IMG/VR virus record: IMGVR_UViG_3300045953_000088
Location: 1-53,620 of that record
Length of the DNA: 53,620 nt
Direction: 5' to 3' (one strand)
DNA from: a virus
Taxonomy: Duplodnaviria > Caudoviricetes
The notes under the pieces were generated by a model. That model was not told the origin of the DNA. It ran no database searches and saw nothing but the letters and a program-made list of their open reading frames with translations. The first letter of the stretch is position 1. Each line of letters begins with the position of its first letter. A program made the translations under genes and the position numbers. Shown piece by piece: positions 5,702-52,414 of the stretch.

Positions 5702-5746
5702 TCGAATCGTCCCTGAGTTTCCCTGCCATCTCAAACGGCATTCGGA

Positions 5747-17495: not shown

Positions 17496-18370
17496 ACCTT
17501 CTGCAGTTCCACCGTCGTCGGCTTGTACCCCGCCGCCTCGATCTTCACCGCCAACGTGCCCACCGGCGGCGCCGGGGTTGGCGGCGGAGGCACCGGTGTC
17601 TGCGCCGCGCCGTACAATTGACGGATTCTCGGAATGTCGTCGTTGGCTTGCGGGCTGATGATGATTGCCGAATAAAACGGGGCCATCAACGCCGACGACG
17701 TTCGCGAGTGGTCAAGCCCCAAGAGATGGCCGAACTCGTGACAGGCGACGTTGCGAAACAGGATTCCGCCTTGCGGGTTTCCAGCCACCCAACGCTCATC
17801 AATGTCGAACCTCATGAGCAATTGCTGGTCTGAGCCGTTTGGCAAGAATGCCCACGCCAACGTCCCACCGCCTCCGTCCATGCCTTGCGAGGGCCCGCGC
17901 CCAGTCGAAATCACAATGTCAGCCCCTTGCTGGCTCATGACTGGTGTCAACACCACGTCAGCCGCGGCCTGCCAGTCATTCCACGCGAGGCGAATCAAGT
18001 CGTCCTGGTCCGATTGGCTGATCCCTCTGACATAAGCCGCGACGAAATACGTGAGCCGATTCTTGCGCCAGCGAGCTTCCTCGATCGACACGAGAGAACG
18101 CTGCGCATCGGTACAGCCGCACCGTGGCTCGGTCATCTTGGCGAGAGTTTGCACGTCGATTTCGCCGTTCGCGTTGACGCCGGCGATCGACTGGAACAAC
18201 GCCAGTGCTCGCTTGATGTGCTCGATGCGTTCGTGGATGGTGATGCCGACGGCGAGAAATCGCGGATCGATGTAGCCGTAGTGCGTGAGGTATTCCGCCA
18301 CGCGCTTGACTTCGGGGAGATGGCGGCCGAATGCGCCGGCCAGTGCGATGAGGGTCGAGAGGTCGAACAT
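17492..18370 (-). CDS. Matrixin (M10A, MMP-like) metalloprotease with PG-binding-like prodomain
   Basis: YLTHYGYI..ALALFQSIAG..GEID prodomain, cysteine switch PRCGCTD, HEFGHLLGLDHS, ALMAPFY Met-turn. Confidence 0.9.
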   Translation of the reverse strand: MFDLSTLIALAGAFGRHLPEVKRVAEYLTHYGYIDPRFLAVGITIHERIEHIKRALALFQSIAGVNANGEIDVQTLAKMTEPRCGCTDAQRSLVSIEEARWRKNRLTYFVAAYVRGISQSDQDDLIRLAWNDWQAAADVVLTPVMSQQGADIVISTGRGPSQGMDGGGGTLAWAFLPNGSDQQLLMRFDIDERWVAGNPQGGILFRNVACHEFGHLLGLDHSRTSSALMAPFYSAIIISPQANDDIPRIRQLYGAAQTPVPPPPTPAPPVGTLAVKIEAAGYKPTTVELQKV

Positions 18371-19478: not shown

Positions 19479-20945
19479 CTATTGTTGGTGTCCTTTGAGG
19501 ATCAACTGAGCCGCGCCGTAAGAATCTTCCCACACTCGCACCGGCACCCGATTTAATCGCGGATTCTGAAGTAGCATCGACGACAAGACGGTATCGCCGC
19601 TCCCACTCCGCACGCTCGCGTCCAGTGCCTTCCACCATCGTTCCACCGAAACGCCAAGGTCCGCTGCGGCCTCGGCAAGCCCGATCTTGGCATCCTCGTA
19701 TCGCTCCCACTCGGCTGCGTAAGCGGCGGCGAATTCCTTTGGCTCCCAGCCGCCCGTAATCTCGCGAACGGCATTCGCGAACACGGCGCGGTCTTTCTCG
19801 ATGAACGGCTCGAGTTTTCTCGCGTACTGCCGGCGCAACTCACGCACGCGGTCAAAATCCGGCGAACGCAATTGCAACGGCGGTGTCAACAGGTTCCGCA
19901 CCCAGCCGTCGAGGTCCTGCAAACCTCCATTCGCATGACACCGAATGCACGAGACATTGACATGCACGCGGCGATCGTTGCTCTTGCTCATGCCGTCGCT
20001 GGCGATATTGTCTGGTGCGCTCGCCTGCACTTTGCCTTGGCGGTCGAACAAACCAGTTGCCCACAGTCCATTGGGCAGGTGTCCGAATTGCTCGCTCGCG
20101 TCGTATTCCTTGTCGATTTCCCGACCGAGCACACGCAACGGATTCTTGTTGCCCTTCACCTGGCCAATGTCAAGCGTCTTCCAGAGTGAGCCTGTCACGG
20201 TGCCAAGCCGCACGATTGCTCGAGGATGGAGCGTCACACCACTATCGGCAACTGCCTCGCGGAGCTCGGCCCCGAGATCCTCGGCACGCTTGACGTCGGC
20301 GCCGATCGCCTTCTGGAACGTCGCCTCATCCTTGACACCGAGAAAATCGTAATAGTTCGGCGATCGATCCGCGGCAGCGGCCGTCTGATTGAACCACCAG
20401 GCCGCATGAACGACTGGCGCCTTGCTCCCCGTCCATTGCACGACTTCGGCAAGCCGCTTTTGTGCCGCGGCCGTGTCGCTCAGCCACGGGGCCAGGGCTT
20501 GGCTCCGAACGGTTTTCTTGTACCTGAACGCACCTTGCGGATAGTAACGTCCATCATCGCGCCACGTTCCACCTTCCCACGGCGTTTCTACTGTCGTCTC
20601 GACCATCGCCGTGAAATACGGGTCGAGCAATTTTTCCCACGTTGCCTTGTCCCATCGGTAATCGCGAAGGTCGATCCTCACGAGCGAGCCTTGCGTGCCT
20701 GGGACGATCGCGACAGGCGTCAGGTCAGGCTCGCGGCTCAGGGCGTTGCAATGGGCGTTGAGAACACGGATGAAACGCTCGCGTTCTTTCGCCGGCGTCG
20801 CGTACAAGCTCAGGTATCGCAGCCTGGTCTTGTCGCCGGCGATCTTCGCCAGGTCTGCATGCGCGGCTGCAATCGCATCGGACGGGGACAACGAGCCCTG
20901 TCCCTGACCTATGGCGAGCAATACGAATGTGGAGAGGGAAACCAA
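19479..20945 (-). CDS. Exported protein with a single CxxCH haem-binding motif
   Basis: GGAGG plus TTG start, N-terminal hydrophobic segment, VSCIRCH. Confidence 0.7.
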   Translation of the reverse strand: MVSLSTFVLLAIGQGQGSLSPSDAIAAAHADLAKIAGDKTRLRYLSLYATPAKERERFIRVLNAHCNALSREPDLTPVAIVPGTQGSLVRIDLRDYRWDKATWEKLLDPYFTAMVETTVETPWEGGTWRDDGRYYPQGAFRYKKTVRSQALAPWLSDTAAAQKRLAEVVQWTGSKAPVVHAAWWFNQTAAAADRSPNYYDFLGVKDEATFQKAIGADVKRAEDLGAELREAVADSGVTLHPRAIVRLGTVTGSLWKTLDIGQVKGNKNPLRVLGREIDKEYDASEQFGHLPNGLWATGLFDRQGKVQASAPDNIASDGMSKSNDRRVHVNVSCIRCHANGGLQDLDGWVRNLLTPPLQLRSPDFDRVRELRRQYARKLEPFIEKDRAVFANAVREITGGWEPKEFAAAYAAEWERYEDAKIGLAEAAADLGVSVERWWKALDASVRSGSGDTVLSSMLLQNPRLNRVPVRVWEDSYGAAQLILKGHQQ

Positions 20946-31383: not shown

Positions 31384-32658
31384 TCACTGCACAGCGGCAA
31401 ATGACTGCGGCAATCCCAAAGCCGCGAACGGCAGTCGGTTGTACGGCCTGATCGTGAAAAAGACTCCCGGCGAGTAGGCGTATTGCCAACCAGTCCCTGT
31501 TGTCGTTAATGCGATCCGTGCCCCGCCGGGCGTTGTAGAAACGTCGATCGCTTGTGCGCCGGCCGTGACGGTGTTACTGATCACGTAGTAAACGGTGTTG
31601 AAGCTCAATGGCGCCGGTGCAACAACGCTGCTCGGCGGGCTTCCTGTTGTTGGAATCGCGGTGAATTGAATCAAGTCGCCGACGTTGAACTTTTGAATTG
31701 GCGAAGTCGCGGCGATCGTCACGGCGCCCGGGCCGGCGCCGGTGACTGGAGTCCAGGGAACCCGATCGGGAAGCGGCATGCCGTATCCGTTGAGCGGAGC
31801 TGACGTGTCGTGACCATCTGCCGTCTTGATCTTGATTCGCCGAGCCGGAATTGCTCCAGCCGCTCCACCGGGAGAATTGACAGGCCGTTCCCAATAGTAG
31901 CTGCCGTAATCCAGAAGCTGGATGTCCCAGCCTGCCGGGTTGTACTCAGCGACATAGCTCACGCGCAAAAATGGGAATTTGTAAGGTGCAACTGGAATCT
32001 GCCGGTCCTGGCGTTCTGGGACAATTTCTTTGAATCGCCAGTAACCCGCTGGAAGTCCCCAAAACACGTCCGAATTGATGGCGTTCGTGTATAGCGCCGC
32101 GATGCCAGGCTGATTTGCGGCAATCGACTCGTTTCTCTGAATCTCCAACGTTGCAAACGTTTCAATGAACTTGGGCGGAGGATCGAACACCTCGCCGTTG
32201 CTTGCCGTGCACGGCTTAACAATGCCCGTCGTGTTGTCGTAAATCCGAGTCAACAGCGCCTCACGGCCGCTCGAATGCCACTTGACTGTCGGGATCTCGA
32301 GCAGAGGATTCGTGAATTCACCCGCCGTCCGCCGGCCAGTGCCAGCGCCGGCGTCACGATTGGAACGTCCTTCCTTCGTCTCAGGCGTTTCGTAGATCGC
32401 CTCGACGATCCACGTCAGTGTTTTCGAACTGCCCTGGCGTTTGGATTCGAAACGGGTAAGCACAAGCTCATCATTGCTCTCGCTGCCCCACGCGTAAGTT
32501 GAGTAGATCACTGGCAAACCTGGAGCACTCGCAACTGTGAGCGGGCCGTCGTTCTGGCTGTTGACGATGACACGATAGGGTACGCGCACCATCTGCCGAC
32601 CGAGGCCAAAATTACCCTCGGGCATGTTGATCGGTTCTGCGCTGCCAACCACTGACAT
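31384..32658 (-). CDS. Tail tip / distal tail protein
   Basis: Follows the tape measure; ASNGEVFDPP, NAINSD.FWG motifs. Confidence 0.65.
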   Translation of the reverse strand: MSVVGSAEPINMPEGNFGLGRQMVRVPYRVIVNSQNDGPLTVASAPGLPVIYSTYAWGSESNDELVLTRFESKRQGSSKTLTWIVEAIYETPETKEGRSNRDAGAGTGRRTAGEFTNPLLEIPTVKWHSSGREALLTRIYDNTTGIVKPCTASNGEVFDPPPKFIETFATLEIQRNESIAANQPGIAALYTNAINSDVFWGLPAGYWRFKEIVPERQDRQIPVAPYKFPFLRVSYVAEYNPAGWDIQLLDYGSYYWERPVNSPGGAAGAIPARRIKIKTADGHDTSAPLNGYGMPLPDRVPWTPVTGAGPGAVTIAATSPIQKFNVGDLIQFTAIPTTGSPPSSVVAPAPLSFNTVYYVISNTVTAGAQAIDVSTTPGGARIALTTTGTGWQYAYSPGVFFTIRPYNRLPFAALGLPQSFAAVQ

Positions 32659-39746: not shown

Positions 39747-41264
39747 TTACGACGCAGCCGTTTGTAAGCCGACAATCGGGCCGGGGTTGGCAGAACGAGC
39801 GTCGCCAATGCCAGAGGCAAAGCCGACATCATGAACGTTGATGTCGATTCGCTCGATGCCGCGAATACCGATCTGGTTGCGTTCCCAGAGCGACTGGCCG
39901 CCGACGCTGGCGTGTTCGGAGAAATCGACTTGCATCGCCTGCCGATCGCCAATCATGGCACCTTGAGAGAAATCGCCAAGCAGGGCGGACACCTGACTGA
40001 CCGCCGTTGTGCCCGGCATGACCTGCACGAACTCGACGGGATAGCCGAGGAAAACCGGACGCTGCTTTCCGCCTGGTGCTTCCGCTGCGGCTTCGCGGGC
40101 TTCGACGCCACCGAGCGCTATCATCACCCGGTGCATGACCGAGTAATAAAACGTCTTGTGGCAAACCCAGCACGCACGCTCGGTATCGGCAAACTTCGGC
40201 AGCAAACCAACGACTGATTCGAAATCGGACATCGAAAGAGTGGCGAAAGTGTGATGGCCGGTTGGGGCCTGAAAAAGTCCGATCGATGGATTCGCACCAT
40301 CCACGAGCAACAACTTCGTGCGGACCCCAACGCATCGGCCGTACGTGCTGGTGCCGTCGCCGTTGAACGCCGCCTGATCTTCGGAGTAGGAAAACGCGTA
40401 GGCGATTTCCTTCGCGAGATCATCGCCCCAATTGATGATCACGTCCGCGTTGACCTGGCGGCTCGCGCGGCTGATGACAGTCAAGTCCTTGGCAACTAGC
40501 TCAACGTCATCCCACGTCTTGTTGCTCTCGGTGTTGGCCGCATTCTCGGCCGTCCAATATGCTGTCAAACCGGAGCGGCGACGCGGCACGCGCTTCGTGT
40601 CGCTCATCATCGGCTCGATCTTGAACAGCCGGCGAGCGTCGCCGAACTGCTCGCGCAGATCGATGATGTCCTGCGAGAACTCGGGCGGAATGAGGAACTG
40701 ATAACCACTCGCATCGGTGGACGACACGGCCGCCATGTTCTTCTTCACCCACTCGGTTGCCTCGGCATAGAACGGCGAGGCCGACATGAGCTTTGGAACG
40801 TCGGCCGCCATGCGAGCGGCCGCCCACATGCCGAAACGGAAGGCCCGCATTTCGGCCGTCAAGCCGTTGCGAGTTCCTTTGAAGTTGCGGATGCTGCCGA
40901 CCTTTTTCGGCTCGGCCCAGATAACCGTCTTGCCATCCCCGGCGTTCGGCACGATGACGCCGTTTTGTGTCGGCGCGTCCGCCGTGGTGATTCGATTGCC
41001 GCCGGTCACCGTCGCGGCCAGACGTTTCTTCTCGGCCTCGCGTTCGGCGGCTTCGCGTTCCAGACGAGCCGTCTCGGCCTCGTTTGCGTCGAGCTGTTTC
41101 TGCCGCTCGATCTTCTGCATCAGCGCGGCACGCTCGCCGCTCCTGCCGTCCGCGCCGACCAGGCGGTCATGCTCGGCTTGTTGATCCGTGGTCATGGCGT
41201 CCGCGCACAAAAGCTCGCGGATTCGCGCGTCCATCGCCTTGAGTTTTTGGATAAGTTCGTGCAC
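39747..41264 (-). CDS. HK97-fold major capsid protein with N-terminal delta domain
   Basis: G.FLIPPEFS.DII, AYWTAEN, EDQAAFNGDG, LGYPV, LLGDFS, RGIERID. Confidence 0.93.
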   Translation of the reverse strand: MHELIQKLKAMDARIRELLCADAMTTDQQAEHDRLVGADGRSGERAALMQKIERQKQLDANEAETARLEREAAEREAEKKRLAATVTGGNRITTADAPTQNGVIVPNAGDGKTVIWAEPKKVGSIRNFKGTRNGLTAEMRAFRFGMWAAARMAADVPKLMSASPFYAEATEWVKKNMAAVSSTDASGYQFLIPPEFSQDIIDLREQFGDARRLFKIEPMMSDTKRVPRRRSGLTAYWTAENAANTESNKTWDDVELVAKDLTVISRASRQVNADVIINWGDDLAKEIAYAFSYSEDQAAFNGDGTSTYGRCVGVRTKLLLVDGANPSIGLFQAPTGHHTFATLSMSDFESVVGLLPKFADTERACWVCHKTFYYSVMHRVMIALGGVEAREAAAEAPGGKQRPVFLGYPVEFVQVMPGTTAVSQVSALLGDFSQGAMIGDRQAMQVDFSEHASVGGQSLWERNQIGIRGIERIDINVHDVGFASGIGDARSANPGPIVGLQTAAS

Positions 41265-41469
41265 GGTTTGGTCCCTCGTGTGGGCCGGGGACCGTGAACG
41301 CGCATGAAAAAACGCCGTGCGTTGAGGCCACCGGCAAATGATCGCTTCCGATCTTCGCCAGCAAGCCATCAGTCGCTACAGCGCCCGATGAAATGCTTAC
41401 CTGTCGTTGCGTTCCGTCCGCTACAGCGTCCGGTTGGTTTGGACAGGGTGAGATTTAATTGTTGATGGA

Positions 41470-41507
41470 AGTATAAGAGCGGGCCTGACTGATTGTCAAG
41501 CCCGCTC
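41470..41507 (-). promoter_or_regulatory. Strong promoter for the capsid gene, overlapped by an inverted repeat
   Basis: TTGACA-N18-TATACT within GAGCGGGCTTGAC-AATCA-GTCAGGCCCGCTC. Confidence 0.65.
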
Positions 41508-41518
41508 AGATTTTTTTC

Positions 41519-42004
41519 TCAGTCGTTCGCGGCCATCACACTCGCGACCTCGCTGGCCACGAGCCCGTAATCAATGCCGACCGCGAGCAACCCGGAGAGA
41601 ACCAAGCCGCCACCGGTCAGCAGAGCAATCGCGTGAGCACAATGCCAGATCGAGAGAACGAGCAGGGCGACGCCGGCCGCGCCGACCGCGAACGCCAGCG
41701 GGCGCTTGCCGGCTCGGTACGCATGCCCGGCGATCCGTCCGAGCATCCACACGAGTAACGGGACGACCGCGCCAAGGACGCCGGCTGCTGTGCACGCCAA
41801 CACGTTCAACGAGCCGCACATGTCGACGTTGGCCCAAGCGTTCAAGCCGCTCGACAGGATGCACGCCGCCACTACGTAGCGCGTTCCCCATCGCTCGACC
41901 TGGCGAAGATGACTGGAATGATTCGGCGCCTTGGGCTTGCTCGGTTTCTTCGCCGGGCGAGCTTTCGGTAAGTCGATACGCGATCCGTTCAATACGCTGT
42001 CCAT
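41519..42004 (-). CDS. Four-TM membrane protein (moron)
   Basis: Four hydrophobic helices; GAGGAG RBS. Confidence 0.65.
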   Translation of the reverse strand: MDSVLNGSRIDLPKARPAKKPSKPKAPNHSSHLRQVERWGTRYVVAACILSSGLNAWANVDMCGSLNVLACTAAGVLGAVVPLLVWMLGRIAGHAYRAGKRPLAFAVGAAGVALLVLSIWHCAHAIALLTGGGLVLSGLLAVGIDYGLVASEVASVMAAND

Positions 42005-42111
42005 GATCTACGCTCCTCGAAAGTGTAGGTCCAGCGGGCCGGATGTTTGCAGCATCGCGGCCCGCAATATCCACCAGTGACAAGGGCCGCCTCTTTCGAA
42101 GCCCTGCGTCG

Positions 42112-42387
42112 TTACTTGCTGGCTTCAGCCATGGCGCACAAGATGACGCCGATGAGCTGGAACACGCCCTTGACCATCTCCACCGCGAAGTAGCATCCAA
42201 TGATGCCATCGCCAGCCATGGAGCCGGCCGCGGCCATGCCGCCAACCAGGATCGCCACGCAGCCTACCGTGCCCAGGATCCACATGTACGCGAGCGGCGA
42301 AAGCACGCTCAGGCACATCAGGGCCACCGAGAAGCTGACGAAGCTCACCCAACCACACGTCACCAGAACAGGGTCACGACGGGTCAT
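42112..42387 (-). CDS. Small membrane protein (moron)
   Basis: AGGAGG RBS; hydrophobic. Confidence 0.55.
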   Translation of the reverse strand: MTRRDPVLVTCGWVSFVSFSVALMCLSVLSPLAYMWILGTVGCVAILVGGMAAAGSMAGDGIIGCYFAVEMVKGVFQLIGVILCAMAEASK

Positions 42388-42437
42388 AACGACCTCCTTT
42401 CCTCTACCATACTATACGATTTTTGCCGCCAAATATT

Positions 42438-42499
42438 GCATTAAATCCAAAATATATTTCGGATTTAATGATTGCACACGCCATGCCGTTGCCTATAAT
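42438..42499. promoter_or_regulatory. Divergent promoter region with palindromic operator
   Basis: CATTAAATCC-N12-GGATTTAATG; plus-strand TTGCAC-N16-TATAAT. Confidence 0.6.
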
Positions 42500-42522
42500 T
42501 CGGATTGAAAGAGAGGTGATTT

Positions 42523-42717
42523 GTGGGCAAGTCAGCAAAACGCGGACGTCCGAAGGTGCACGATACGCCGCGTAAACACCTTGGCATACGTCCGTCTGCC
42601 GAAGTGGCAGCAGCACTTGAGGCGTATTGCAACGCGCAAACGGTCAGACCGTCTGATTCTGCGGTTGCGATGCACGCGCTAGTCGAGTTCTTGAAAAGAG
42701 AGGGTTACTTGAAATGA
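42523..42717 (+). CDS. Small RHH-like regulator
   Basis: RGRPK AT-hook-like motif, strand-helix-helix, ALVEFLKREGY; same style as 12481..12705. Confidence 0.6.
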   Translation: MGKSAKRGRPKVHDTPRKHLGIRPSAEVAAALEAYCNAQTVRPSDSAVAMHALVEFLKREGYLK

Positions 42718-42923
42718 AACGCCCATGCTGTCGCCCCGCCGCCTCGCACGCCTGGAAGCCACTCCCAGGCGACGGCAACTACGTGACGTGCAGCAAGTGC
42801 GGCCGCCTCGCCGGCTATCAGCGCGGCGGTCTTCTCGCACGACGCGGACGACTCAAGTTGTTCAACTATCCAGAAATTGAAGAATCGATCCGAGAGCGCG
42901 CGGCCAAAAATGTGAATTCTTGA
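42714..42923 (+). CDS. Small Zn-ribbon protein
   Basis: CC..H.W...CSKCG; translationally coupled. Confidence 0.5.
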   Translation: MKRPCCRPAASHAWKPLPGDGNYVTCSKCGRLAGYQRGGLLARRGRLKLFNYPEIEESIRERAAKNVNS

Positions 42924-42927
42924 TGGG

Positions 42928-43188
42928 CTATTCGTCTTCGTCTAACGAATCAATCAACTCGGACAACGACTCTTCGTCGAGGTTGCCGCCAACGATTTCA
43001 GCGATCGCAGTAGACTTGTCCTCGATCTCGTGTTCCCCGTTGCCAAGTTCGAGGATCTCATCGTACGTCCAACCCAGAAACGAATCACCTTCGACTATCA
43101 AATGGGAAAGTTGGCCGATAGAATCATTCGCTTCGGCGCTCGCAAGAGCCTGAATTCCGCCATCAACCTTACTCAAGAAAACGGTCAT
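42928..43188 (-). CDS. Small acidic protein, candidate immunity protein
   Basis: ATGA overlap with the upstream metallopeptidase gene; very acidic. Confidence 0.55.
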   Translation of the reverse strand: MTVFLSKVDGGIQALASAEANDSIGQLSHLIVEGDSFLGWTYDEILELGNGEHEIEDKSTAIAEIVGGNLDEESLSELIDSLDEDE

Positions 43189-44177
43189 TTTTTCTTGCCC
43201 TTTATTAGTCCATCGATCTTTGATTTGATGACGCTGACCGTCCGTGGAAAATGCTTGGCGAGTTCATTATAGGAGCAACCGCCAGTGCCATGTTCATCTT
43301 TCCCTTTGTGAATTTGAGCAAATAATTCGGCAAACGCTTCGCTGCGTGCTCTCGCGTAGGGAATTCCGTCGCCGACATGCGTGAAATACGCGAGCCCTTC
43401 TTTTTCTTTCACAGGAATTGAAGAATTGTCTATGTTGTACGCCTCGATGAAATCGGCGTGCGTTGATGCCCAATTCAACGCCTGGTCAACAGAATGACCG
43501 TACTCATGCCGAGCCGTTCCGACGACGCGATTTGACTGGTACTCTTTTCCACCAACTAAATAATGAGACGCCACGATTGCCCGGTTTCCAGAGGACGTAT
43601 GAACTCCATCAGGCAATGTTCCTGCGCCCCATCCGCCAAATCCTGATTCGTTGAGCGACTCGTAACCGGGTAATTCATCCGTGACCTTGTTGACCACAAC
43701 AACCTTGCCAGGTGAGTCAGCGCCAACAACAGCATCGTGAACGTGATCGGGAATAGTGCTTAGGGCTTTGTGGACTTGGTTCGTGACTTCTTTTGGAGGA
43801 TCGCCCTTCGTTTCCAGTGCGTACGCTTTCGGCACTTTGCTGTAGTCCTTTTCGGGTTTTTCGACTGGAGTCTCTTTTTTCGGCGTCTCCTGCTTTTCCT
43901 TCGCGTACTTTTCCTTCAGCCGGTCTGCCAGTTTCTTGACGAGTTCGGATTTCTTTCCGCTCGCCTTGACGCCGTGATCTTTCTTAAGGCTGTGGAGTTG
44001 CTTGACTGTCATCTTCGACAGGTCACGCAGCAGAGCCTTTGCCTCTTCTTTGCTGCACTTGCCGCCGTTCTCCTTGATCTTCGCAATTCTATCGCGAGCC
44101 TTTTTGTCGTCCTCTTTTCCTTGGGGACATGGACCAGGAACGCCGCTACCAGGGCCGCCACACCCTAAGCGCGGCAT
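43185..44177 (-). CDS. CGGPGSG-tagged SAP-like domain plus anthrax-lethal-factor-like Zn metallopeptidase (probably a frameshift extension of the protease)
   Basis: CGGPGSGVPGPCP; LSKMTVKQLHSLKKDHGVKASGKKSELVKKL (SAP-like); HEYGH...YF...SEAFAELFA. Confidence 0.8.
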   Translation of the reverse strand: MPRLGCGGPGSGVPGPCPQGKEDDKKARDRIAKIKENGGKCSKEEAKALLRDLSKMTVKQLHSLKKDHGVKASGKKSELVKKLADRLKEKYAKEKQETPKKETPVEKPEKDYSKVPKAYALETKGDPPKEVTNQVHKALSTIPDHVHDAVVGADSPGKVVVVNKVTDELPGYESLNESGFGGWGAGTLPDGVHTSSGNRAIVASHYLVGGKEYQSNRVVGTARHEYGHSVDQALNWASTHADFIEAYNIDNSSIPVKEKEGLAYFTHVGDGIPYARARSEAFAELFAQIHKGKDEHGTGGCSYNELAKHFPRTVSVIKSKIDGLIKGKKK

Positions 44178-45121
44178 CGGTCGAAAAAATAGGAGCCCTC
44201 GAACAGCAACGCCGCTTCGCGCTCGCGCTGCTCTTGCCGCAGCATCATCATGTTCGTACCGCCGCTACGAGCGTCCGACGCGCCGACGCCCAGGCCACTG
44301 AGAAGTGATTCCAGGGAGCGAATCTGATCGATCATCCCGGCCGCCAGCGCCGTCTGCGCGGAAACGACGGCGCCTTGACCGAACTTCTCGCGCACGTCCG
44401 ATTTGTTCATGTCGTGGCGATTCCGAGCGACGGCAGCAATGAACGCCGTGTAAGTTTCATTGACGCTCGCCTGGATCGCCGCGCGAGCATCGTCGTCAAG
44501 AGGCTCAGTCGGGAAGCCCTCGGCCTTGCGCTTGCCGGCTTTGACGATCGATACCTTGATGCCAGCCTTTTCGAGCGCCTTCGATTGATCGACGTGGATT
44601 TGATAAACGCCGACGCTGCCGACGTCGCCGCTTGGCGTGCAGCAAAACGTTGATGCCGAGGTTGCGAGCCAGTACGCCGCGGAGCACGCGACGCTGTTCG
44701 CAATCGCGTAGCACGGCTTTTTCGCTCGCGCATTGTAAATCTTGTCTGACAGTTCCTGAATGCCGTAGCTCGTTCCGCCTGGGCTGTCAACGTCAAGCAC
44801 GATCGCGCTGACGCTCGGATCGTTCACGGCGGAATCGAATTGAACGCCGATTTCATCGCAGGACGTTCCGCCCATCATGTAACCCATGAAGGACAAATGC
44901 TGCTCAAGGAATCCGTAGACGCCGATCATCGCGACGCGGCCCTTGACGGCGCGGATCGCTTTCGCCGCAACGTGCTTGGCGGCGTCCATTCGCTTCGCTC
45001 GCTCTGCCTCAACGCACTGAGCTGACGGGACCTCGCGGCGCGACGCGGCTTCCAGCATCTGCTTGAATCGCGTCGGCTCGGCGAGCCAAGAAGTGTTGTC
45101 AAGGGCTTTGATGTCGAACAT
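44165..45121 (-). CDS. S49-family prohead protease
   Basis: IVLDVDSPGG, ACSAAYWLA, VGSVGVY, KAGKRKAEG, AGMIDQI. Confidence 0.92.
   Translation of the reverse strand: MFDIKALDNTSWLAEPTRFKQMLEAASRREVPSAQCVEAERAKRMDAAKHVAAKAIRAVKGRVAMIGVYGFLEQHLSFMGYMMGGTSCDEIGVQFDSAVNDPSVSAIVLDVDSPGGTSYGIQELSDKIYNARAKKPCYAIANSVACSAAYWLATSASTFCCTPSGDVGSVGVYQIHVDQSKALEKAGIKVSIVKAGKRKAEGFPTEPLDDDARAAIQASVNETYTAFIAAVARNRHDMNKSDVREKFGQGAVVSAQTALAAGMIDQIRSLESLLSGLGVGASDARSGGTNMMMLRQEQREREAALLFEGSYFFDRCRA
44183..44189 (-). other. Candidate -1 frameshift site T_TTT_TTC fusing the protease to the effector
   Basis: TAT TTT TTC in the protease frame; the -1 frame reads ...FRPMPRLGCGGPGSG; hairpin 7 nt downstream. Confidence 0.65.
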
Positions 45122-45125
45122 GGCG

Positions 45126-45458
45126 TCAGTCCTTTTTTGGTGCCTGCACGAATCGCGGTTTCTTCTCGACCTTTTCGTAGGGGATGATTTCTTCGACTTC
45201 CCATTCTTCCGCGCCGTTTTCCTGTTTGACTGGGCCTTTCAGCAATGGAACTTGATCATCACGAATTTCCGGCCGTCCCTTAACCGGCGTGAATCCCCAC
45301 TTGGTGACAAGTGCAGCGATCATCAATTCTGGATCATCGCCTTGCCATGGGATTTGTTCGTCCGGGCTGTCCGGAGTCCGCACAAAAAATTCATTGCCGT
45401 CTTGAAGGGCAATTCGGGCTGGCCCGGCAGCGGCGACGACAATGAAGTTACGCATCAA
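45126..45458 (-). CDS. Small protein, candidate immunity protein for the portal-fused toxin
   Basis: Start abuts the portal stop; GGAGG RBS. Confidence 0.55.
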   Translation of the reverse strand: MMRNFIVVAAAGPARIALQDGNEFFVRTPDSPDEQIPWQGDDPELMIAALVTKWGFTPVKGRPEIRDDQVPLLKGPVKQENGAEEWEVEEIIPYEKVEKKPRFVQAPKKD

Positions 45459-48317
45459 CTAACCTCCGGTAATTTTCTTGAGCCAGCCGAACCAGCCTTT
45501 GTTTGCTGCCTTCGCCGCGGCGTCATTAGCCCGCTGTTTGGCGGTTTCGTAGGACATAGTTTCGCCGGTTTCGTCGTGAAAGAAACGAACCGGAATCCCC
45601 GCCTTGGCGGCCAATTCCATGAACTGATCAACGCCGGCCCTGGTAGAGCTCAAGGATGGCATCCGGATTTCTTTCACGTTGTCCTTGTCCAGCGGTACAT
45701 CGCCCCAAATCTGTTGCTCATTATACGCTGCCGGGTTGACGTCCTTCATGCCGCTCGGGTCAATGCCGGCTGCAGCCATAGCCCGGCCGTTGCCAAGCAT
45801 CGCGTGATATGGATCCTGCGGAGTGCCAACGCCGCTATCGTCACGATGACCAAAACTGTTGCCGTTGGTCATCGTTGTGCGATCGTCGAGCTTGTCTTTG
45901 TTGAGCACAATGGTTGCGTCGCCATAGACCGAAGCGGCGCCGTAGAGATTGTTTTCCCAATTGACCGCTGCGTATTTTGGGCGATCGCCGTTCTCGACGT
46001 CCTCGCCGGCACCGAGGGCCTCATTCTCTTGTTTCGCTCTGGCTTTCAAGTAATCAGGACCTTTGGCGCCTGTTTCGAATGCGTTCTTGAGGCTGCCGCT
46101 GCCGAGAATCCTTGCCAGGTCCTCGGGATCGGCGTTGATCGTGACTTCGGCCTTCGCATACGCATTGCTGAGTTGATCCTTGACCGCCTTGGCGCCTTCT
46201 TCGCCCTTTGGCCCCTTCCAGGCGTCGCTGTTCACAAAGTCAGCGACGGCCTTTTCGCTTTTGCTCTTCGCGTCCGTCTGCAATTTTTCGACGGCCTTTG
46301 CGGCCGGCTTTGATAACGGCCTGCTGTTCGACTTTTGCTTGTCGTTTTTTTCCTTGCCGTCTTTATTGCCCTTGGAATCGTCGCCCGACTTTTCGTCCTC
46401 TTTGCCTTCTGGACAAGGGCCTGGCACGCCGCTACCAGGACCGCCGCACGCTTGCTTCGCCTCGCGATCTGCTCTCACCGTCGGCCAATCCGCCAGCATG
46501 CGCGAGAAGCGATCCTTCGTGAGCGTGTTGTACCCGTTGAGCAACAGCTTCTTTGAGTCAGCGCAGAGGCGACTCGCCAGCTTTTTCGTTTTGACTTTGA
46601 TGCCGACGGCTTTCGCCATCTGGCACGCGGTACGAAGTTCCTCGACAGCCAGAGCCTCGTGAGTCGCGTAGAACTGCTCGAGCCAGGCGTCAAAGTCTTT
46701 GCTCGCCGCGGCGCGATCGGCGGCCTTGGCTTCCTTCGTGAGAATGCGAGAAATGGCGTCGCGCAGCACGACTTCAGCCGCCGCCTTTTGTTGCTCGGCT
46801 TTCTTCCTGTCTTCGACCGCCGGCTGCGGAGCTGGCAAAGCCGCTGCGCGATAATCGGCCTTCAGGCTGGCTTCGATCGAATCAAGCCGGCGGTAAAGTT
46901 CCTGGCGATCGAGCGTGAGCATTTTCCGAGTCCAAGCGTCAAACGCCGCGGCGCCGTCGCCGCTCATCGGCGGAAGCGCCATCGGTCCTCCATCGTTTGG
47001 AGCGCCGGTGTGATCGCTGCCGGGCTGGCCAGGTTTCGTGCCTCCTTGTGCACCGCTGACCTTACCCGCGATGAGATCTTCAAGAACCACCATGTTCGCC
47101 GGGAACATCGCCTTGTCGCCAGACGGCCCAAGGCCGTTCATGTTTTCAAGCCGGCGACACTCATTGACCGTTAGTACGCCGATCATGATGCCCGTGCGGT
47201 AGGCATTCATGCGGGCCTGCATGTCGCCACGGAGCAAGCCGTTGAAATCATGCTGGACGAAGAAGCGGCCCCGATCTTCCTTGCGGAAAAGCTTGAGGTT
47301 GTATTGCTCTTCGGCTCTCTTGCACCAAGGGTAAAGACAGTAGATGACGAACTCCAAGCCGAGGGCTTCGACGGTGGCATACTTCGAATCCTTGAGGTCG
47401 GCGAGCATGTGCGGCGGGACACGATACCAACAAGCGATTTGATTGCGGTTGTAGTCAAGCAACTCAAGGAACTGAGCGTCTGCCGCGCTAAAGCTCAACT
47501 GCTCGAGCTTCGCGTCGCGATGCCAGAGGATCGCCAGCTCGCCACTGTCCGGCGATCCGTGCATCGTTTTCCAGTTTTCGCGAAACTCCCGGCGCTGTTC
47601 TTGATCCGCCAAGTCTGGGTCAATCAGGGCCATGCGCGGAGTGTTGCCGTTTCCGAGGTTCGTTGCAACCTGTCGGTCGCCTGCAATGCCGACGCCGAAA
47701 GATTCACGGGCATAGGAGACGACGCTCTTGCCCCAAATGCCATCTTCGGCGTGCGCGCCTGGATAGTGCAGCATGTTCTTCGCGAGTACTGCCACCGTTC
47801 CGCCGTCGTTGTTGCGAACGAGATAAGCGCCCATCGGGATCGGCCGGCCGTCTCTGTATTTGTCACCCGGTTGAACGGGCCGAACACGGCCGGGGTGAAT
47901 CGGCCAAAGTGCGATCGGTTCTTCCGTTTTCGGATCGCGTTCGATCTCCGCGAAGCCGTTGCCCATGTTGACCTGGTGCAACGTGCGGCCAGTTCGGAAT
48001 GCCGTCGAGCCCATCAGCTCGTTGGGGAAATAACGGAGCAGATCGTGGACAGTATTACCGATCGCTTCTTTGCGCGAACTGTCGTCGTCGCTCGTACGTT
48101 GGTAGGTGATGAGATCGCGATCGGCAACACCTTCGTCAAGCACACGCGAGGCACACCAGCACGCAGATAAAGTCAGCGCCAACTCTTCGTTGACGACAAC
48201 GTTTGATTGGGTTTTCGCGCGGCTGTTGTACCACGGACCAATATTCCAGCCGTCAGCCGCGGCGGCGTGTTTGCGAACGCCAGTCGGCACGAGCATGTCG
48301 AGCAGAGCGCCGAACAC
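45459..48317 (-). CDS. HK97-family portal protein with C-terminal CGGPGSG tag and DUF3626-like toxin domain
   Basis: GNGFAEI, LWPIHP, GIWGKS, DAQFLE, IA..YRVPPHML, LTVNECRRLENM; tag at 46410-46448; RPKYAAVN...YGDA...RTT.T.GNS...YNEQQIWG. Confidence 0.9.
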   Translation of the reverse strand: MFGALLDMLVPTGVRKHAAAADGWNIGPWYNSRAKTQSNVVVNEELALTLSACWCASRVLDEGVADRDLITYQRTSDDDSSRKEAIGNTVHDLLRYFPNELMGSTAFRTGRTLHQVNMGNGFAEIERDPKTEEPIALWPIHPGRVRPVQPGDKYRDGRPIPMGAYLVRNNDGGTVAVLAKNMLHYPGAHAEDGIWGKSVVSYARESFGVGIAGDRQVATNLGNGNTPRMALIDPDLADQEQRREFRENWKTMHGSPDSGELAILWHRDAKLEQLSFSAADAQFLELLDYNRNQIACWYRVPPHMLADLKDSKYATVEALGLEFVIYCLYPWCKRAEEQYNLKLFRKEDRGRFFVQHDFNGLLRGDMQARMNAYRTGIMIGVLTVNECRRLENMNGLGPSGDKAMFPANMVVLEDLIAGKVSGAQGGTKPGQPGSDHTGAPNDGGPMALPPMSGDGAAAFDAWTRKMLTLDRQELYRRLDSIEASLKADYRAAALPAPQPAVEDRKKAEQQKAAAEVVLRDAISRILTKEAKAADRAAASKDFDAWLEQFYATHEALAVEELRTACQMAKAVGIKVKTKKLASRLCADSKKLLLNGYNTLTKDRFSRMLADWPTVRADREAKQACGGPGSGVPGPCPEGKEDEKSGDDSKGNKDGKEKNDKQKSNSRPLSKPAAKAVEKLQTDAKSKSEKAVADFVNSDAWKGPKGEEGAKAVKDQLSNAYAKAEVTINADPEDLARILGSGSLKNAFETGAKGPDYLKARAKQENEALGAGEDVENGDRPKYAAVNWENNLYGAASVYGDATIVLNKDKLDDRTTMTNGNSFGHRDDSGVGTPQDPYHAMLGNGRAMAAAGIDPSGMKDVNPAAYNEQQIWGDVPLDKDNVKEIRMPSLSSTRAGVDQFMELAAKAGIPVRFFHDETGETMSYETAKQRANDAAAKAANKGWFGWLKKITGG

Positions 48318-48550: not shown

Positions 48551-50320
48551 TTAATTCCAAAGGTCCCCGGGCTTGTATGGCGGCGGCGCCGTCGCCGACC
48601 AGAACAAAGCGCGTCCGATGCTCATGACGGCCGCAGTAACACCGTCGATCTTCTCCGGAGATTTTTCTTTGCTTGGCTTCACGAGGTTGCCGCGACGTTC
48701 AGCTACGACATTAGACACCATCCAACGCATGACAGGATCGCCGGCGTGATGTAGGCGCTCGGCTGACAACAATTCCAAGAACTCCCGGAACGGCGCCGCC
48801 ATACTAAGAATGCCTTGGGGAAATTGAAAGATCTTGCGGTCACCGTACTTCTTCTGCAGGTTGGTGCTCATCTGACCGCCCTGGAAGCCGCGGTCGAGTG
48901 CAAAGTCGCGGAACGTGTACGGCGCCAGCAGTTCTTCAATGTCCACGAGCACCATGTCATAATCGACAGAGGATCCTGGCGTTGCTCGGATGAACCCCTC
49001 TTTGCGCCAACCATCGATGACAGCTTGCATGCGATGATCGCGCTTGACAGGTTCCTCCGGCAGCCAGAATGTCATCAGTGCCGTGAAACTGCGGCGAACG
49101 ATCCGCCGTGATCCGATTGGTTTGCCAACGTCGTCAAAGCTCGGAATCTCGACAGTCACGGCGTCATCATGCGGAAACAGTCGGCAAAGTGCAACGAAGT
49201 CGGACGTGGCGCCGATGTCGAGCGATGGATAGCATTCACGACCTTTCAGGGCCGAGAGGTCGATGTTTCGCTTGCCGGCGTCCCAGAGGTGCATCTGAAT
49301 GAGACGTTCCGCTGTCGAAGTCTTTTGGTTTAGGTTCAGGCGCCGGAACGTGTTCTCGTATGCCGGAATCTCTTGCGCACGTTTGCACTCTCGACGCAGA
49401 TAATCGAGCGAAACAGAAACGCCAAGATTGGGATTTGCCTTGATCCAGTGTTGTTCATCTCGCCAGTCAACGTCGCGCGGAACTTCGTAGATAACCGGCA
49501 AGAACGTTTGGTCGTTAATGATGCCGTCGCGCACCTTGCATGCGTATTCGTATTTCTCATTGCAAATCGACGGTCGATCGTAGTCAGCCGTCGTGATGCA
49601 GATAAACAACGGCTGCTTTCGGTTCGAGCTGGCGAACGAAGTCTGGAAGACGTCGACCAGGTCGCGATTCGGTTGCACATGCAGTTCGTCGATGATCGCA
49701 AGGTGCGTGTTGCCGCCGTGCTTGCCGGGTGCGTCGGCGCTGATGACGCGCAAGTAAGAATGATCTTCTTCTCGGGCGATCGACTTTGACTGTCCGGCGG
49801 TCGCGTTGCCCCCGTAAATCTTGCAGCGAGATTCAAGCTCGGGCTCGGCTTCAACCATTCCCTTGCAATGACGGAACAACGCTCCGGCTTGTTCTTTCTC
49901 GCCGGCGGCGATGAAGTCCTGCTGGCCCTTCTCTTCGTCGGTGAAAAACACCAGCAACGCCAGGCCTGAGACAGTCGGCGTTTTGCCGTTCTTGCGCGCC
50001 ACATACAGCAGCGACTCGCGATAACGACGAACTTTTCGGCCGTGCTCATCACGTCGTTTCCAGCCCATCAAATTCGCGATGAAAGACTTTTGCCACGGCT
50101 CAAGTACAAACGGCTGGTCCGCGACTTCACCTTCGACGTGGCGCAAACACTGGGGAAAGAAATCGAGTGCGAGCTGCGCGGCGCCGGCATCAAACGACGC
50201 GTCGCCGGCCGTGGCGATCGAATCGTAGCCAGGAATAAGCAGCAGGATATCGCGCCACTCTTGCGGAATTTCAGAGGGCCGAAAGATGCCTGTCGGAAGT
50301 TCAGTTGCTGTCGCGACCAT
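48551..50320 (-). CDS. terL: Terminase large subunit
   Basis: LEPWQ, VARKNGKT, IIDELH, ITTA, KANPNLG, LDIG, EKIDG. Confidence 0.95.
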   Translation of the reverse strand: MVATATELPTGIFRPSEIPQEWRDILLLIPGYDSIATAGDASFDAGAAQLALDFFPQCLRHVEGEVADQPFVLEPWQKSFIANLMGWKRRDEHGRKVRRYRESLLYVARKNGKTPTVSGLALLVFFTDEEKGQQDFIAAGEKEQAGALFRHCKGMVEAEPELESRCKIYGGNATAGQSKSIAREEDHSYLRVISADAPGKHGGNTHLAIIDELHVQPNRDLVDVFQTSFASSNRKQPLFICITTADYDRPSICNEKYEYACKVRDGIINDQTFLPVIYEVPRDVDWRDEQHWIKANPNLGVSVSLDYLRRECKRAQEIPAYENTFRRLNLNQKTSTAERLIQMHLWDAGKRNIDLSALKGRECYPSLDIGATSDFVALCRLFPHDDAVTVEIPSFDDVGKPIGSRRIVRRSFTALMTFWLPEEPVKRDHRMQAVIDGWRKEGFIRATPGSSVDYDMVLVDIEELLAPYTFRDFALDRGFQGGQMSTNLQKKYGDRKIFQFPQGILSMAAPFREFLELLSAERLHHAGDPVMRWMVSNVVAERRGNLVKPSKEKSPEKIDGVTAAVMSIGRALFWSATAPPPYKPGDLWN

Positions 50321-50991: not shown

Positions 50992-51963
50992 TCAGTTCTT
51001 AACCAGGAGAGGTCGTTCAACCTTCACCACTCGCCGCGCCTTCGCCGCCAGCCGCTCAACAAATCGTCCGTCTGCAAGGAAGTCCGTACCTTCCCATTTT
51101 ACTTGTCGAATCAAATCCGCCGACGCCAGCCAATTGCCGACGTCCGCGCAGCCAGCTTTCGGCTCGGCCGGGACAACACCATAGCCGCTGTAGCTGTGGA
51201 GCATTTGGCAAATGGCGAAGTCGGCATCGTTTGCTTGGAGAGCGTGAACGAGTTGCTCGAAGTAGCCGGGTGTGAGGTAGTTGTCGTCGTTGTTGAGGCC
51301 GATGAAGTCAGCCTCATTGTCGATACATCGATCGATACCAAGCTGCCGGTACGGATGGCCCCACAGTCCGCAACGCATGCTCGTCTGATGAACCGATATT
51401 CGTTGTGTGACCAACTCATTCGTGCTTACCATCGTGCCATCCGTGACGAGATTGCAAATCCAATTTGTGTATCGTTGTCGCTCCAACGATGAACAGAAAA
51501 GCTTCGCTCGGTCCATTGGATACTTCACGCGCACCGCCAGCGCCACGAGTGGCTCAGCTCGCAATGGCAAGCCGAACTCAAGCGCCAAAAATCGATGCAA
51601 TTTCCGGTTGTAGGTGCCGCCCGCAATGATTACCTCAGCAACCTTCTTGTCGCCGTACCACTCAGCAACCGCGGCGGCAACCGCGGCACTTCGCCCGACG
51701 CCGGCCTCGCACTGAACTATGAGAAAGTCGTTGTCGCCCAGGCCGTGGATAAATTGATAGATTTGTTTCGCTTGCTGTTCGTTCGGGCCAGGCAAATCTG
51801 GCATCACCTCGCGCACATCAAAGCATTCGAGATCGAGTCGGCGCACGCAGCCTGGCGGCGCTTTCACTTCCGGCGTGAGAGGATCGCGAAATGAAATCAG
51901 GTGATAGTCGCCATAGCCCGGACGGGATTCGAGTGCGTGTCGCGAAAGGAAATTCAATCGCAT
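50992..51963 (-). CDS. Fusion of a Cys-dependent (CX5R) phosphatase and a GT2 glycosyltransferase
   Basis: VQCEAGVGRSAAVA; GLWGHPYRQLGI...LNNDDNYL.P...ADGRFVE. Confidence 0.8.
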   Translation of the reverse strand: MRLNFLSRHALESRPGYGDYHLISFRDPLTPEVKAPPGCVRRLDLECFDVREVMPDLPGPNEQQAKQIYQFIHGLGDNDFLIVQCEAGVGRSAAVAAAVAEWYGDKKVAEVIIAGGTYNRKLHRFLALEFGLPLRAEPLVALAVRVKYPMDRAKLFCSSLERQRYTNWICNLVTDGTMVSTNELVTQRISVHQTSMRCGLWGHPYRQLGIDRCIDNEADFIGLNNDDNYLTPGYFEQLVHALQANDADFAICQMLHSYSGYGVVPAEPKAGCADVGNWLASADLIRQVKWEGTDFLADGRFVERLAAKARRVVKVERPLLVKN

Positions 51964-51979
51964 GTTGTTCGTCCCTGAG

Positions 51980-52414
51980 TTAGCCGGCTTTCTCACGCGC
52001 CGCAAAGAACTTCAACTTTGGATTGTCAGCCTGCTTCGGCTGTGGCTTGACGCCGAGCTTGCGCCGCGCGTCCGGATTGAGCCCGAGCTTGCGGGCCATT
52101 TCATTCATCTGCTTTTGTGCACGGTTCGAGATCGCGAGATATGGATCCTGCGACGCGCCTTTCTTGCCGCGGACAACGAGGCCGCGCTTGAGCTTGGACT
52201 CGGCGTGGCGCCAGCGTTCGAATGCGACACAGTAAAGAGCGATCGCGTCCTGGTCCGCTTCGTGCAACAGATCGTACGTCGCGAGCACGCGCACCACCTC
52301 AGCCCACTTTTTTTTGGCGACGCGGCCGAGGTAAGACGGGCACTCGGGCGCGGCGCCGAGGTCAGCGGTGAGTGGCGACTCAGGTTTTGGTGGTCGGCCT
52401 CGTGGCATGGTCAT
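51980..52414 (-). CDS. terS: Terminase small subunit (P27 family)
   Basis: GRPPKP, P.YL..VAKKKW, LALYC-like, P.LAI, LGLNPDAR. Confidence 0.9.
   Translation of the reverse strand: MTMPRGRPPKPESPLTADLGAAPECPSYLGRVAKKKWAEVVRVLATYDLLHEADQDAIALYCVAFERWRHAESKLKRGLVVRGKKGASQDPYLAISNRAQKQMNEMARKLGLNPDARRKLGVKPQPKQADNPKLKFFAAREKAG

Follow-up and report, generated by a model that had tools for sequence, protein, structure and literature searches.

What does it signify that two unrelated domains, encoded at separate points of one phage head module, are each preceded by the same cysteine-bracketed peptide? The question is raised by the IMG/VR virus record IMGVR_UViG_3300045953_000088, whose 53,620 bases were analysed at full length (this whole stretch is called the window here) and whose completeness is estimated at 66%. 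The phage is considered temperate because the record encodes an integrase; no host context accompanies it. The peptide, CGGPGSGVPGPCP, referred to below as the tag, occurs once within the open reading frame (ORF) of the portal protein, ahead of a C-terminal domain called cargo 1, and once near the start of ORF330, a protein encoded where the head maturation protease gene ends. As shown below, the tag is conserved as a peptide and heads many unrelated modules in uncultured phages, a distribution for which a role in loading proteins into the phage head may be proposed.

The head module occupies the minus strand of the window, in the order large terminase, portal with cargo 1, ORF110, S49 protease, ORF330, ORF86 and, farther on, the major capsid protein (MCP). 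Both cargoes lie within a terminase-portal-protease-capsid array of the type described by Iyer et al. in 2017, with all genes on the same strand. The features relevant to the argument are as follows.

48551-50320, minus strand: large terminase
Between the terminase and the portal ORF, minus strand: ORF of 72 residues
45459..48500, minus strand: portal ORF with C-terminal cargo, 1013 residues from the longest start, tag and cargo in the same frame
47142..48164, minus strand: portal core domain (Pfam PF04860, residues 113-453)
46410..46448, minus strand: tag copy 1, CGGPGSGVPGPCP, portal residues 685-697, with a linker rich in Lys, Asp, Glu and Gly behind it
45462..46331, minus strand: SopF/DUF3626-type ADP-ribosyltransferase-fold domain (cargo 1), portal residues about 724-1013
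45126..45458, minus strand: ORF110, small acidic ORF (isoelectric point, pI, 4.8), abutting the portal stop
44165..45121, minus strand: S49 (ClpP/SppA-like) head maturation protease (Peptidase_S49, E 1.3e-32; phrog_53, E 1.4e-82)
44183..44189, minus strand: T_TTT_TTC heptamer, candidate -1 frameshift site at codons 311-312 of the 318 codons of the protease frame
43185..44177, minus strand: ORF330 (330 residues), comprising the tag, a charged linker, a predicted SAP domain and a predicted zincin metallopeptidase
44124..44162, minus strand: tag copy 2, CGGPGSGVPGPCP, ORF330 residues 6-18
43923..44024, minus strand: predicted SAP (helix-extended-helix) DNA-binding domain, ORF330 residues 52-85
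43311..43790, minus strand: predicted zincin metallopeptidase domain (HEYGH at 43494-43508, EAFAE at 43326-43340)
42928..43188, minus strand: ORF86, very acidic small ORF (22 Asp+Glu versus 2 Lys+Arg, pI 4.05)
39747-41369, minus strand: HK97-type MCP, beyond a short insert past ORF86

A conserved peptide heading unrelated modules

A sequence-only reading of this DNA had reported the identical tag at 46410-46448 and 44124-44162. A search of the window by degenerate back-translation returned exactly these two sites of CGGPGSGVPGPCP, both on the minus strand (searched core 46411-46448 and 44125-44162), and none in 100 dinucleotide-preserving shuffles of the window. Codon by codon, the two copies differ at seven of 13 positions (Cys1, Gly3, Val8, Pro9, Gly10, Pro11 and Pro13), in every case synonymously, as that reading had also stated; the peptide common to both extends over 20 residues, CGGPGSGVPGPCP[E/Q]GKED[E/D]K. 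Past the two linkers the sequences are indeed unrelated to each other, the one matching DUF3626 and the other SAP and ATLF. Outside the window, CGGPGSGVPGPC recurs as 17 identical 12-residue peptides encoded by 16 different DNA sequences of mean nucleotide identity 0.75. On this sequence evidence, selection acts on the tag peptide and not on its DNA, which agrees with what had been claimed for the two copies in the window. The same reading had listed a recombination signal among the possible functions, an option that has to be abandoned, as the synonymous divergence of the copies contradicts any signal at the DNA level.

Two classes of the tag can be distinguished: class 1, CGGPGSGxPGPC-P, and the commoner class 2, N-x-F-C-P-T-G-x-G-G-G-[VI]-D-P-[ST]-C, which aligns with class 1 from G-P-G onwards; the same proteins carry both forms, and both are covered by the wider phage motif C-x(1-2)-G-x-G-[SG]-G-x-x-[PG]-x-C. 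Pattern scans for class 1 gave 11 stretches in viral contigs, 26 in metagenome contigs and 7 in species-representative genomes. Many of these are duplicates, and about a dozen with another residue at the Ser position look like chance; frames with G, R, P, A or Y at this position (L015-L017, L019, L020, L026, L031, L033, L035, L041), which are Arg/Pro-rich and GC-rich, were set aside as chance-like, and so was L014, a frame of the same composition. Among the genomes, the canonical class-1 peptide is found only in a metagenome-assembled genome (MAG) of Planctomycetota (L018). The class-2 scan of viral contigs gave 97 stretches with 106 distinct contexts. The collection came to 134 distinct tag instances in uncultured phages, 26 of class 1 and 108 of class 2. 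All tag-bearing sequences are from uncultured sources, and, as most loci are short, the counts of co-occurring genes given below are lower bounds. One locus (L045) bears a near-identical tag stretch (LSPVGGEEYDEF-CGGPGSGVFGPC-PEGRKDDE) on both strands at one contig end, probably an assembly artefact.

The tag has a clear polarity. Fewer than 40 residues follow it in 2 of 62 cases (3'-closed frames), versus 18 of 91 in which fewer than 40 residues precede it, and in 23 of the 56 5'-closed frames the first tag lies within 60 residues of the start codon; some of the ORFs with an N-terminal tag have a clear ribosome-binding site (L008). The 25 residues past the tag are rich in G, S, K, A and P, and the residues preceding it are of ordinary composition; upstream of class 2, N is found at position -3 in 83 and F at position -1 in 104 of the 108 instances. 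By all appearances the tag belongs to, and travels with, the module that follows it.

The modules themselves are diverse. BLAST sorts the 125 downstream segments into 62 clusters if they are trimmed to 300 residues and into 57 if they are trimmed to 400, the count depending on segment length; the largest cluster at the 400-residue cut, with 57 members, is held together by MuF. Among the named modules behind the tag are MuF, topoisomerase IB, sigma-70 regions 2 and 4, ART-PolyVal, ADPrib_exo_Tox, zeta toxin, GNAT and cupin, and 44 of 55 cluster representatives are without a Pfam family. The possibility that the tag always precedes one and the same domain, which had been named at the outset as fatal to the proposal, clearly fails in view of at least 57 unrelated modules. 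Two kinds of these modules deserve a separate mention. A complete sigma-70-type factor lies directly behind a class-2 tag in a phage polyprotein (L138:1540-2118, plus strand) and in two cluster mates, which suggests that a sigma factor is carried as head cargo. Topoisomerase IB catalytic domains also stand behind the tag (L046:1853-4546 and L115:481-1500, both minus strand), one on a Mu-type portal fusion, and a four-member cluster of them behind class-2 tags.

The proteins that carry the tag vary as well. According to Pfam, 8 of 22 tag-bearing frames contain MuF, two Phage_portal, one Portal_Mu plus topoisomerase I and one an S78 prohead protease plus an AAA ATPase, and the remaining 10 show no informative family. 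The idea of interchangeable cargo on carriers of the head interior is thus borne out by two portal families, MuF and the S78 prohead protease. Several architectures illustrate this: Portal_Mu, tag, zincin (HEMTH), tag and ADPrib_exo_Tox in P0113; Portal_Mu, tag, unknown, tag, unknown in P0143; the tag between an acidic leader and a DUF3626 domain that shares 56% identity with cargo 1 of the window, in P0006; and, on the same 100-kb contig as P0006, the tag, a hydrophobic domain, a second tag, SAP and another domain in P0003. In L025, the gene next upstream of that for the capsid protein encodes an S78 prohead protease joined in frame to the tag, behind which come zinc ribbons and an AAA ATPase. 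Polyproteins with up to eight tags are also found, with the tags placed at module boundaries. The eight near-complete genomes (at least 90%) contain 1, 3, 1, 2, 1, 3, 2 and 5 strict tags.

The sequence-only reading had noted that no MuF domain is recognisable. This holds for the window, where Phage_Mu_F gave no match in the 46 ORFs scanned or in a six-frame search of the record (66% complete); it does not hold elsewhere, as the tag is mostly found in MuF proteins, MuF being encoded in 14 of 20 tag-bearing virus records and in seven of the eight near-complete ones. Two observations on these proteins can be added. In L004, the stretch from the preceding stop codon to the tag offers the tag-MuF frame none of the start codons ATG, GTG and TTG (minus-strand view 3340-3520), and the frame overlaps in the +1 register the end of a 474-residue upstream ORF, probably a portal. 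Two readings suit this locus: an assembly error has interrupted a portal-tag-MuF fusion, or a +1 shift takes place. In several phages a conserved small gene of about 86-117 residues lies directly downstream of the tag-bearing MuF protein (L006, minus-strand view 5178-5438; L007, 3760-4026; G004, 46376-46657; G006, 64777-65127; G007, 19613-19870; G008, 32178-32444). Judged by eye, its product may be a winged-helix protein, and it is unrelated to ORF110 or ORF86 of the window.

Within the collections searched, neither the tag nor either cargo has a match in cultured phages. In a tblastn comparison with 50,697 phage records no match was obtained for ORF330 or for the region of the tag plus cargo 1, and the polyprotein of L001 matched solely through its MuF domain. 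No solved structure with the motif was found in a PDB sequence search with both tag classes and both cargoes, the best match being an integrin Cys-rich module at E 0.6, which is not meaningful.

The two cargoes of the window and the genes around them

The portal ORF matches Pfam Phage_portal with E 1.3e-74 (residues 113-453) and the portal family phrog_12 with E 2.4e-72. The start at 48317 given in the sequence-only reading corresponds to portal residue 62 and lies directly past the stop of the small upstream ORF; the real start of the portal is likely to be near it. A helical extension lies between the portal core and tag copy 1.

Cargo 1 has an ADP-ribosyltransferase fold like that of SopF, and the fold that had been put forward as possible for this DUF3626-like domain was therefore well chosen. 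Its own score against Pfam DUF3626 (PF12294) is marginal (E 3.6e-6, 26.7 bits versus a cut-off of 27); P0006 scores 34.8 bits, and 13 of 14 other scanned homologues match at E<=0.001. A DUF3626 entry is present for 12 homologues of cargo 1 and missing for P0011 and P0016. The residues invariant in the family, R821, R840-P-x-Y843 and Y926-x-E928-x-Q930, are all present in cargo 1. Sequence identity to Salmonella SopF (PDB 7dn8, 7dn9) is 16-17%, and the two differ in setting: SopF is a type III secreted effector, whereas cargo 1 is an appendage of a phage portal, for which a bacterial target would be expected. Homologues of cargo 1 occur in proteins of 2264-3703 residues together with ART-PolyVal, ADPrib_exo_Tox, LPD1, ParB and RelA_SpoT, and also on Phage_portal, Portal_Mu and MuF carriers, including untagged portal and MuF fusions; close relatives of P0006 were not found in viral contigs. 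A SopF-family ADP-ribosyltransferase, known from a Salmonella effector, is thereby placed among candidate phage head cargo.

ORF330 can be considered a SAP-domain protein with a predicted zincin related to anthrax lethal factor (LF), the zincin assignment resting on motifs and on the homologue P0004. Against Pfam SAP it scores E 4e-4, below the cut-off, which its homologues P0002 and P0003 pass, and the SAP block MTVKQL..HG.KASGKK.LV is invariant across four sequences. Against Pfam ATLF it reaches E 1.3e-3 and 18.9 bits, short of the cut-off of 27.4; P0004, which is 31% identical to ORF330 (E 1e-9), scores 8e-21 and 75.1 bits. The motifs HEYGH (residues 224-228) and EAFAE (residues 280-284) constitute the HExxH signature and downstream Glu of zincins, and H, E, G, H and the later E.FAE are invariant in six tag-associated zincins. 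The SAP-like domain and LF-like HExxH peptidase proposed earlier are thus supported by HEYGH...EAFAE and by P0004. PF18818 (MPTase-PolyVal) has no match in the window record or in any of the 20 tag-bearing records. The AlphaFold2 model of ORF330, built from four sequences, has a predicted local distance difference test (pLDDT) score of 40.8 and a predicted TM-score of 0.24, too poor for a fold search. No close relatives of ORF330 were found in viral contigs, and no longer forms of its zincin were found.

The sequence-only reading had named both the portal and the protease as carriers. The former stands, the tag being in frame there; the latter does not in the window, where ORF330 is not fused in frame but occupies the -1 frame relative to the protease, with its ATG 10 nt before the protease stop codon, and where a fusion would need an unproven -1 frameshift. 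Such a frameshift, programmed at T_TTT_TTC, could produce a protease-cargo fusion in addition to ORF330 and would make the protease a true carrier. The heptamer, of the canonical X_XXY_YYZ type and read in the frame of the protease, precedes the ATG of ORF330 by 12 nt; upstream of this ATG the -1 frame has 29 codons free of stops and stays open through the junction, so that a slip would read ...FFRPMPRLG-tag. The ATG itself has no Shine-Dalgarno sequence at a working distance, unlike most genes here, and the tag starts at residue 6 of ORF330, as if the polypeptide continued from upstream. The in-frame S78 protease-tag-AAA fusion of L025 is a precedent, and effector fusions to a capsid-processing peptidase are reported in PMC9503650. 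Other observations point the other way. In-frame heptamers number 31 per 11,267 codons, which corresponds to about 0.08 expected by chance in the open stretch, and a second one, A_AAA_AAG, lies at the end of ORF110 (45126-45140), four codons before the stop, and is read as chance because the -1 frame there is Arg-rich junk. The hairpin that starts 4 nt downstream of T_TTT_TTC is no stabler than those of shuffled sequences (z -0.06), stand-alone ORFs with an N-terminal tag are common (23/56), the tag is present in none of 120 longer S49 homologues, most of which are S49-capsid fusions, and no close relatives were found in which conservation of the heptamer could be examined. A frameshifted product is accordingly held to be improbable, and termination-reinitiation at the overlapping ATG is the simpler reading of this layout.

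Each cargo adjoins a small, tightly coupled gene, as had been described: ORF110 begins with a TTG directly past the portal stop, with GGAGG 5 nt upstream, and the start of ORF86 lies in an ATGA overlap with the ORF330 stop. For neither product was a Pfam or PHROG family, a homologue or a matching fold found (Atlas gave no usable match), so that adjacency is what speaks for an immunity function, and the immunity role suggested for the two genes in the sequence-only reading finds no support beyond their position. A polymorphic toxin-immunity system in the sense of the MuF toxins, with antibacterial cargoes neutralised by ORF110 and ORF86, would agree with the tight coupling of a small ORF behind each cargo, with ADP-ribosyltransferases and metallopeptidases being common toxin types, with the MuF toxins and downstream immunity genes established in PMC5576092, and with the cassette-like position of ORF330 and ORF86 in one low-GC patch. 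Against it speak the missing family, homologue and fold matches of the small ORFs, the lack of a MuF domain in the window, and the cargoes found behind the same tag elsewhere (sigma factor, topoisomerase IB, AAA ATPase), which are better suited to DNA handling or to takeover of the host than to killing. Such a system is therefore judged quite unlikely here.

The GC content is 0.49-0.53 across ORF330 and ORF86, compared with 0.58-0.62 in the flanking head genes, and the nearest S49 relatives have protease and capsid protein joined directly in one chain. Taken together, these two features suggest an insertion that brought in the SAP-zincin cassette and the genes between it and the capsid gene. 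The interval that separates ORF86 from the capsid gene (41400-42925) holds a moron-like insert with a 161-residue multi-pass membrane ORF on the minus strand (41519-42004) and two plus-strand ORFs, one basic and possibly of the ribbon-helix-helix type (42523-42717), the other with CxxC pairs (42714-42923); none of the three has a Pfam family. Among the longer S49 relatives (P0160-P0279), the closest have S49 fused to an HK97-type capsid protein or to PF25209 in a single polypeptide. Several of these come from MAGs of Pirellulales or Phycisphaerae, a hint that the hosts of this phage group may be Planctomycetota; the genome with the canonical tag is likewise a Planctomycetota MAG.

Elsewhere in the window, all on the minus strand, are a 996-residue C-5 cytosine DNA methylase ORF, apparently interrupted by an intein (2744-5734; Pfam Hint_2 and Hom_end_hint at residues 88-135, LAGLIDADG at 325-389, the best of two reported methylase stretches at 525-582), a PhageMetallopep protein (861-1769), a matrixin with a peptidoglycan-binding domain (17492-18370) and an ORF lying shortly upstream of the terminase gene (50992-52005), which weakly matches a glycosyltransferase and a DSP phosphatase of polymorphic-toxin type.

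Possible roles of the tag

The locus may be understood as the head module of an uncultured temperate phage with two cargo modules destined for the head interior. The first would be the SopF-like ADP-ribosyltransferase, attached to the interior-facing C-terminus of the portal, and the second the putative SAP-zincin protein encoded at the end of the protease gene, each headed by the invariant Cys-bracketed Gly/Pro loop and a flexible charged linker. The tag would then be a portable module header, a signal for incorporation into the head or for tethering there, which would also mark the point at which cargo and carrier separate. Such a header would be comparable in role to the T4 capsid-targeting sequence and would not depend on any one family of head proteases; the two invariant cysteines suggest a loop closed by a metal or a disulfide. 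What gives the tag the look of such a header is its polarity, the flexible linker behind it and the frequency with which it stands at the N-terminus. Taken as a whole, this statement is given an even chance of being correct.

Several observations weigh against it. The tag is found in only nine of the 153 stored homologues of cargo 1, the one in the window included, and is consequently dispensable for this kind of fusion. Cargo that is already part of the portal chain has no need of a targeting signal, and release or cleavage is the role favoured there. In the AlphaFold2 model the tag is not ordered, and model residues 1-37, which comprise the tag and its linker, have a pLDDT below 50. The families of MCP, portal and protease all vary among the tag-bearing phages; in particular, the capsid family PF05065 is present in only 8 of the 20 records, which makes docking onto a single capsid-protein family unlikely. 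In an all-against-all BLAST comparison of nine genomes, a search that would miss remote homologues, the sole cluster common to all was that of the portal, MuF and tag proteins, and a docking role is thus left with no identified receptor among common phage partners. The collections searched yielded no cultured phage bearing the tag or a cargo. Finally, three of the eight near-complete genomes have a single strict tag, which rules out pairing of tags between different proteins as a general rule.

According to a second explanation, the tag is mainly a site of proteolytic processing, and a cut at or in the loop frees the modules and trims the short N-terminal leaders; the cut could be made by the head protease or by the zincin encoded alongside, by an enzyme of the host, or by the tag itself through self-cleavage. 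Its main support is that a portal-fused cargo must be cut in order to leave the capsid, and the tag is the sole conserved element between portal and cargo. The placement of tags at the module boundaries of polyproteins with up to eight tags is consistent with cleavage, and so is the presence of a zincin and a tag in the same ORF in six distinct contigs, including the window, and of a zincin between two tags in P0113; zincins have been proposed to process polyvalent proteins (Iyer et al., PMC5512222). On the other hand, an invariant Gly/Pro loop of 12-14 residues with two cysteines is unlike known head-protease sites, and the residues before the tag are not linker-like. The distribution of candidate enzymes argues in the same direction. 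S78 was detected in seven of the 20 tag-bearing virus records, S49 in one, that of the window, and neither in 12, which weakens the tag as a head-protease site. The profile of the tag-linked zincins was found in seven of the 20 records and in two of the eight near-complete ones, its clade being missing from the other six, and PF18818 is missing from all 20 records; a dedicated tag protease of this kind is weakened as well. It is therefore unlikely that the tag is the site of one head protease, and the zincin does not explain it. A plain role as a cleavage site is considered a serious rival, though a less than probable one.

Of the header role described above a more far-reaching version can be formulated. 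The loop, leader and linker could together act as a transferable address label which loads any protein fused behind it into the head, across phages that differ in portal, capsid protein and head protease, and holds it there by a clasp closed by a metal or a disulfide, which would open in the reducing cytoplasm of the host. This version is doubtful; if true, it would amount to a general load-and-release signal for injected proteins, distinct both from the T4 sequence and from protease-site junctions. Less probable still is that the portal-fused enzyme is never delivered and works at the vertex itself, on the proteins or DNA that pass through it during packaging or ejection, with the tag as a stiff spacer retained in the course of module shuffling. 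Judged by eye, the residues flanking the tag do not fit a lipoprotein box, an intein, an RTX repeat or a 2A-like skip, and these four identities were rejected.

Phages are thought to inject enzymes together with their DNA, and outside T4, P1, N4 and a few others the choice, holding and release of such cargo are unclear. A tag that heads more than 100 modules provides a search handle for candidate injected proteins in metagenomes, and as a defined element it is open to mutation or transplantation in studies of loading and release. If portable, it could also serve to load proteins into phage capsids.

Relation to known systems

Two analogies come from outside the phages. In encapsulins, a short conserved peptide and a flexible linker direct unrelated cargo into a shell of the HK97 fold, and in AB toxins a Cys-bracketed loop between carrier and enzyme stays closed until it is reduced in the target cytoplasm. 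The tag may be likened to the encapsulin peptides and to the disulfide-bridged nick loops of AB toxins, but has no sequence similarity to either; neither a receptor nor a pocket for binding to the shell was identified, and the MCP families of tag-bearing phages vary (PF05065 in 8/20).

The closest relatives in organisation are the polyvalent proteins and other head-fused effectors. By Iyer et al. (2017, PMC5512222; 2022, PMC9503650), effector fusions to MuF, the portal or a capsid-processing serine peptidase are interpreted as cargo packaged into the head and injected. The phenomenon that the sequence-only reading had presented as a candidate effector system has thus already been described, and what appears to be new is the tag. 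Neither the tag peptide strings nor the topics of capsid targeting and cleavage motifs led to a match to the motif in the literature searched, though supplementary alignments of these papers might contain it. The window shares with the polyvalent proteins the location in a portal-terminase head module, the occurrence of ADP-ribosyltransferases, zincins and DNA-binding domains (Rho-N/SAP) on portal, MuF or peptidase, and extensive domain shuffling: its domains are shared with recognised polyvalent proteins and shuffled among architectures, cargo 1 co-occurring with ART-PolyVal, LPD1 and ParB. It differs in that the cargo is split into a portal fusion and a small separate ORF instead of forming one giant polypeptide; with one effector domain in the portal ORF, and a DNA-binding domain plus a peptidase in ORF330, it is minimal in comparison with the giants of 2-15 domains. 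It differs also in the invariant Cys-bracketed Gly/Pro motif that heads its modules, the words linker, glycine and cysteine being absent from the main text of PMC5512222.

The MuF polymorphic toxins described by Jamet et al. (2017, PMC5576092) resemble the window in having a head-module protein with a variable C-terminal domain of toxin type, in a temperate phage, with small genes downstream, and the tag is elsewhere found most often in MuF proteins. In the window, unlike in those systems, the carrier is the portal, and there is neither a MuF domain nor a recognisable immunity protein. The main text of PMC5576092 makes no mention of a linker, glycine, cysteine or conserved motif.

The putative zincin of ORF330 has, like ATLF and the polyvalent zincins, an HExxH motif with Asp three residues on (HEYGHSVD) and a downstream Glu (EAFAE); the His-Glu-x-x-His-x-x-Asp variant is described for phage-type polyvalent zincins by Iyer et al. 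(PMC5512222). It is nearer to Pfam ATLF than to the polyvalent MPTase-PolyVal (0/20 records). Unlike anthrax lethal factor, however, ORF330 is a small SAP-linked phage protein and not a toxin of animals.

The T4 capsid-targeting sequence, finally, is lineage-specific, lacks a pair of cysteines and binds to the core of the scaffold, and its cleavage by gp21 takes place at L/I-x-E. The tag departs from it in being also internal, on portal, MuF and protease carriers, and in occurring in phages with different or no detected head proteases. What it has in common with the signal of the T4 internal proteins and Alt is that a short N-terminal peptide, beginning at residue 6 in ORF330 and within the distances given above elsewhere (23/56; 18/91 versus 2/62), heads otherwise unrelated proteins, which here are putative head cargo, at what may be a processing point.

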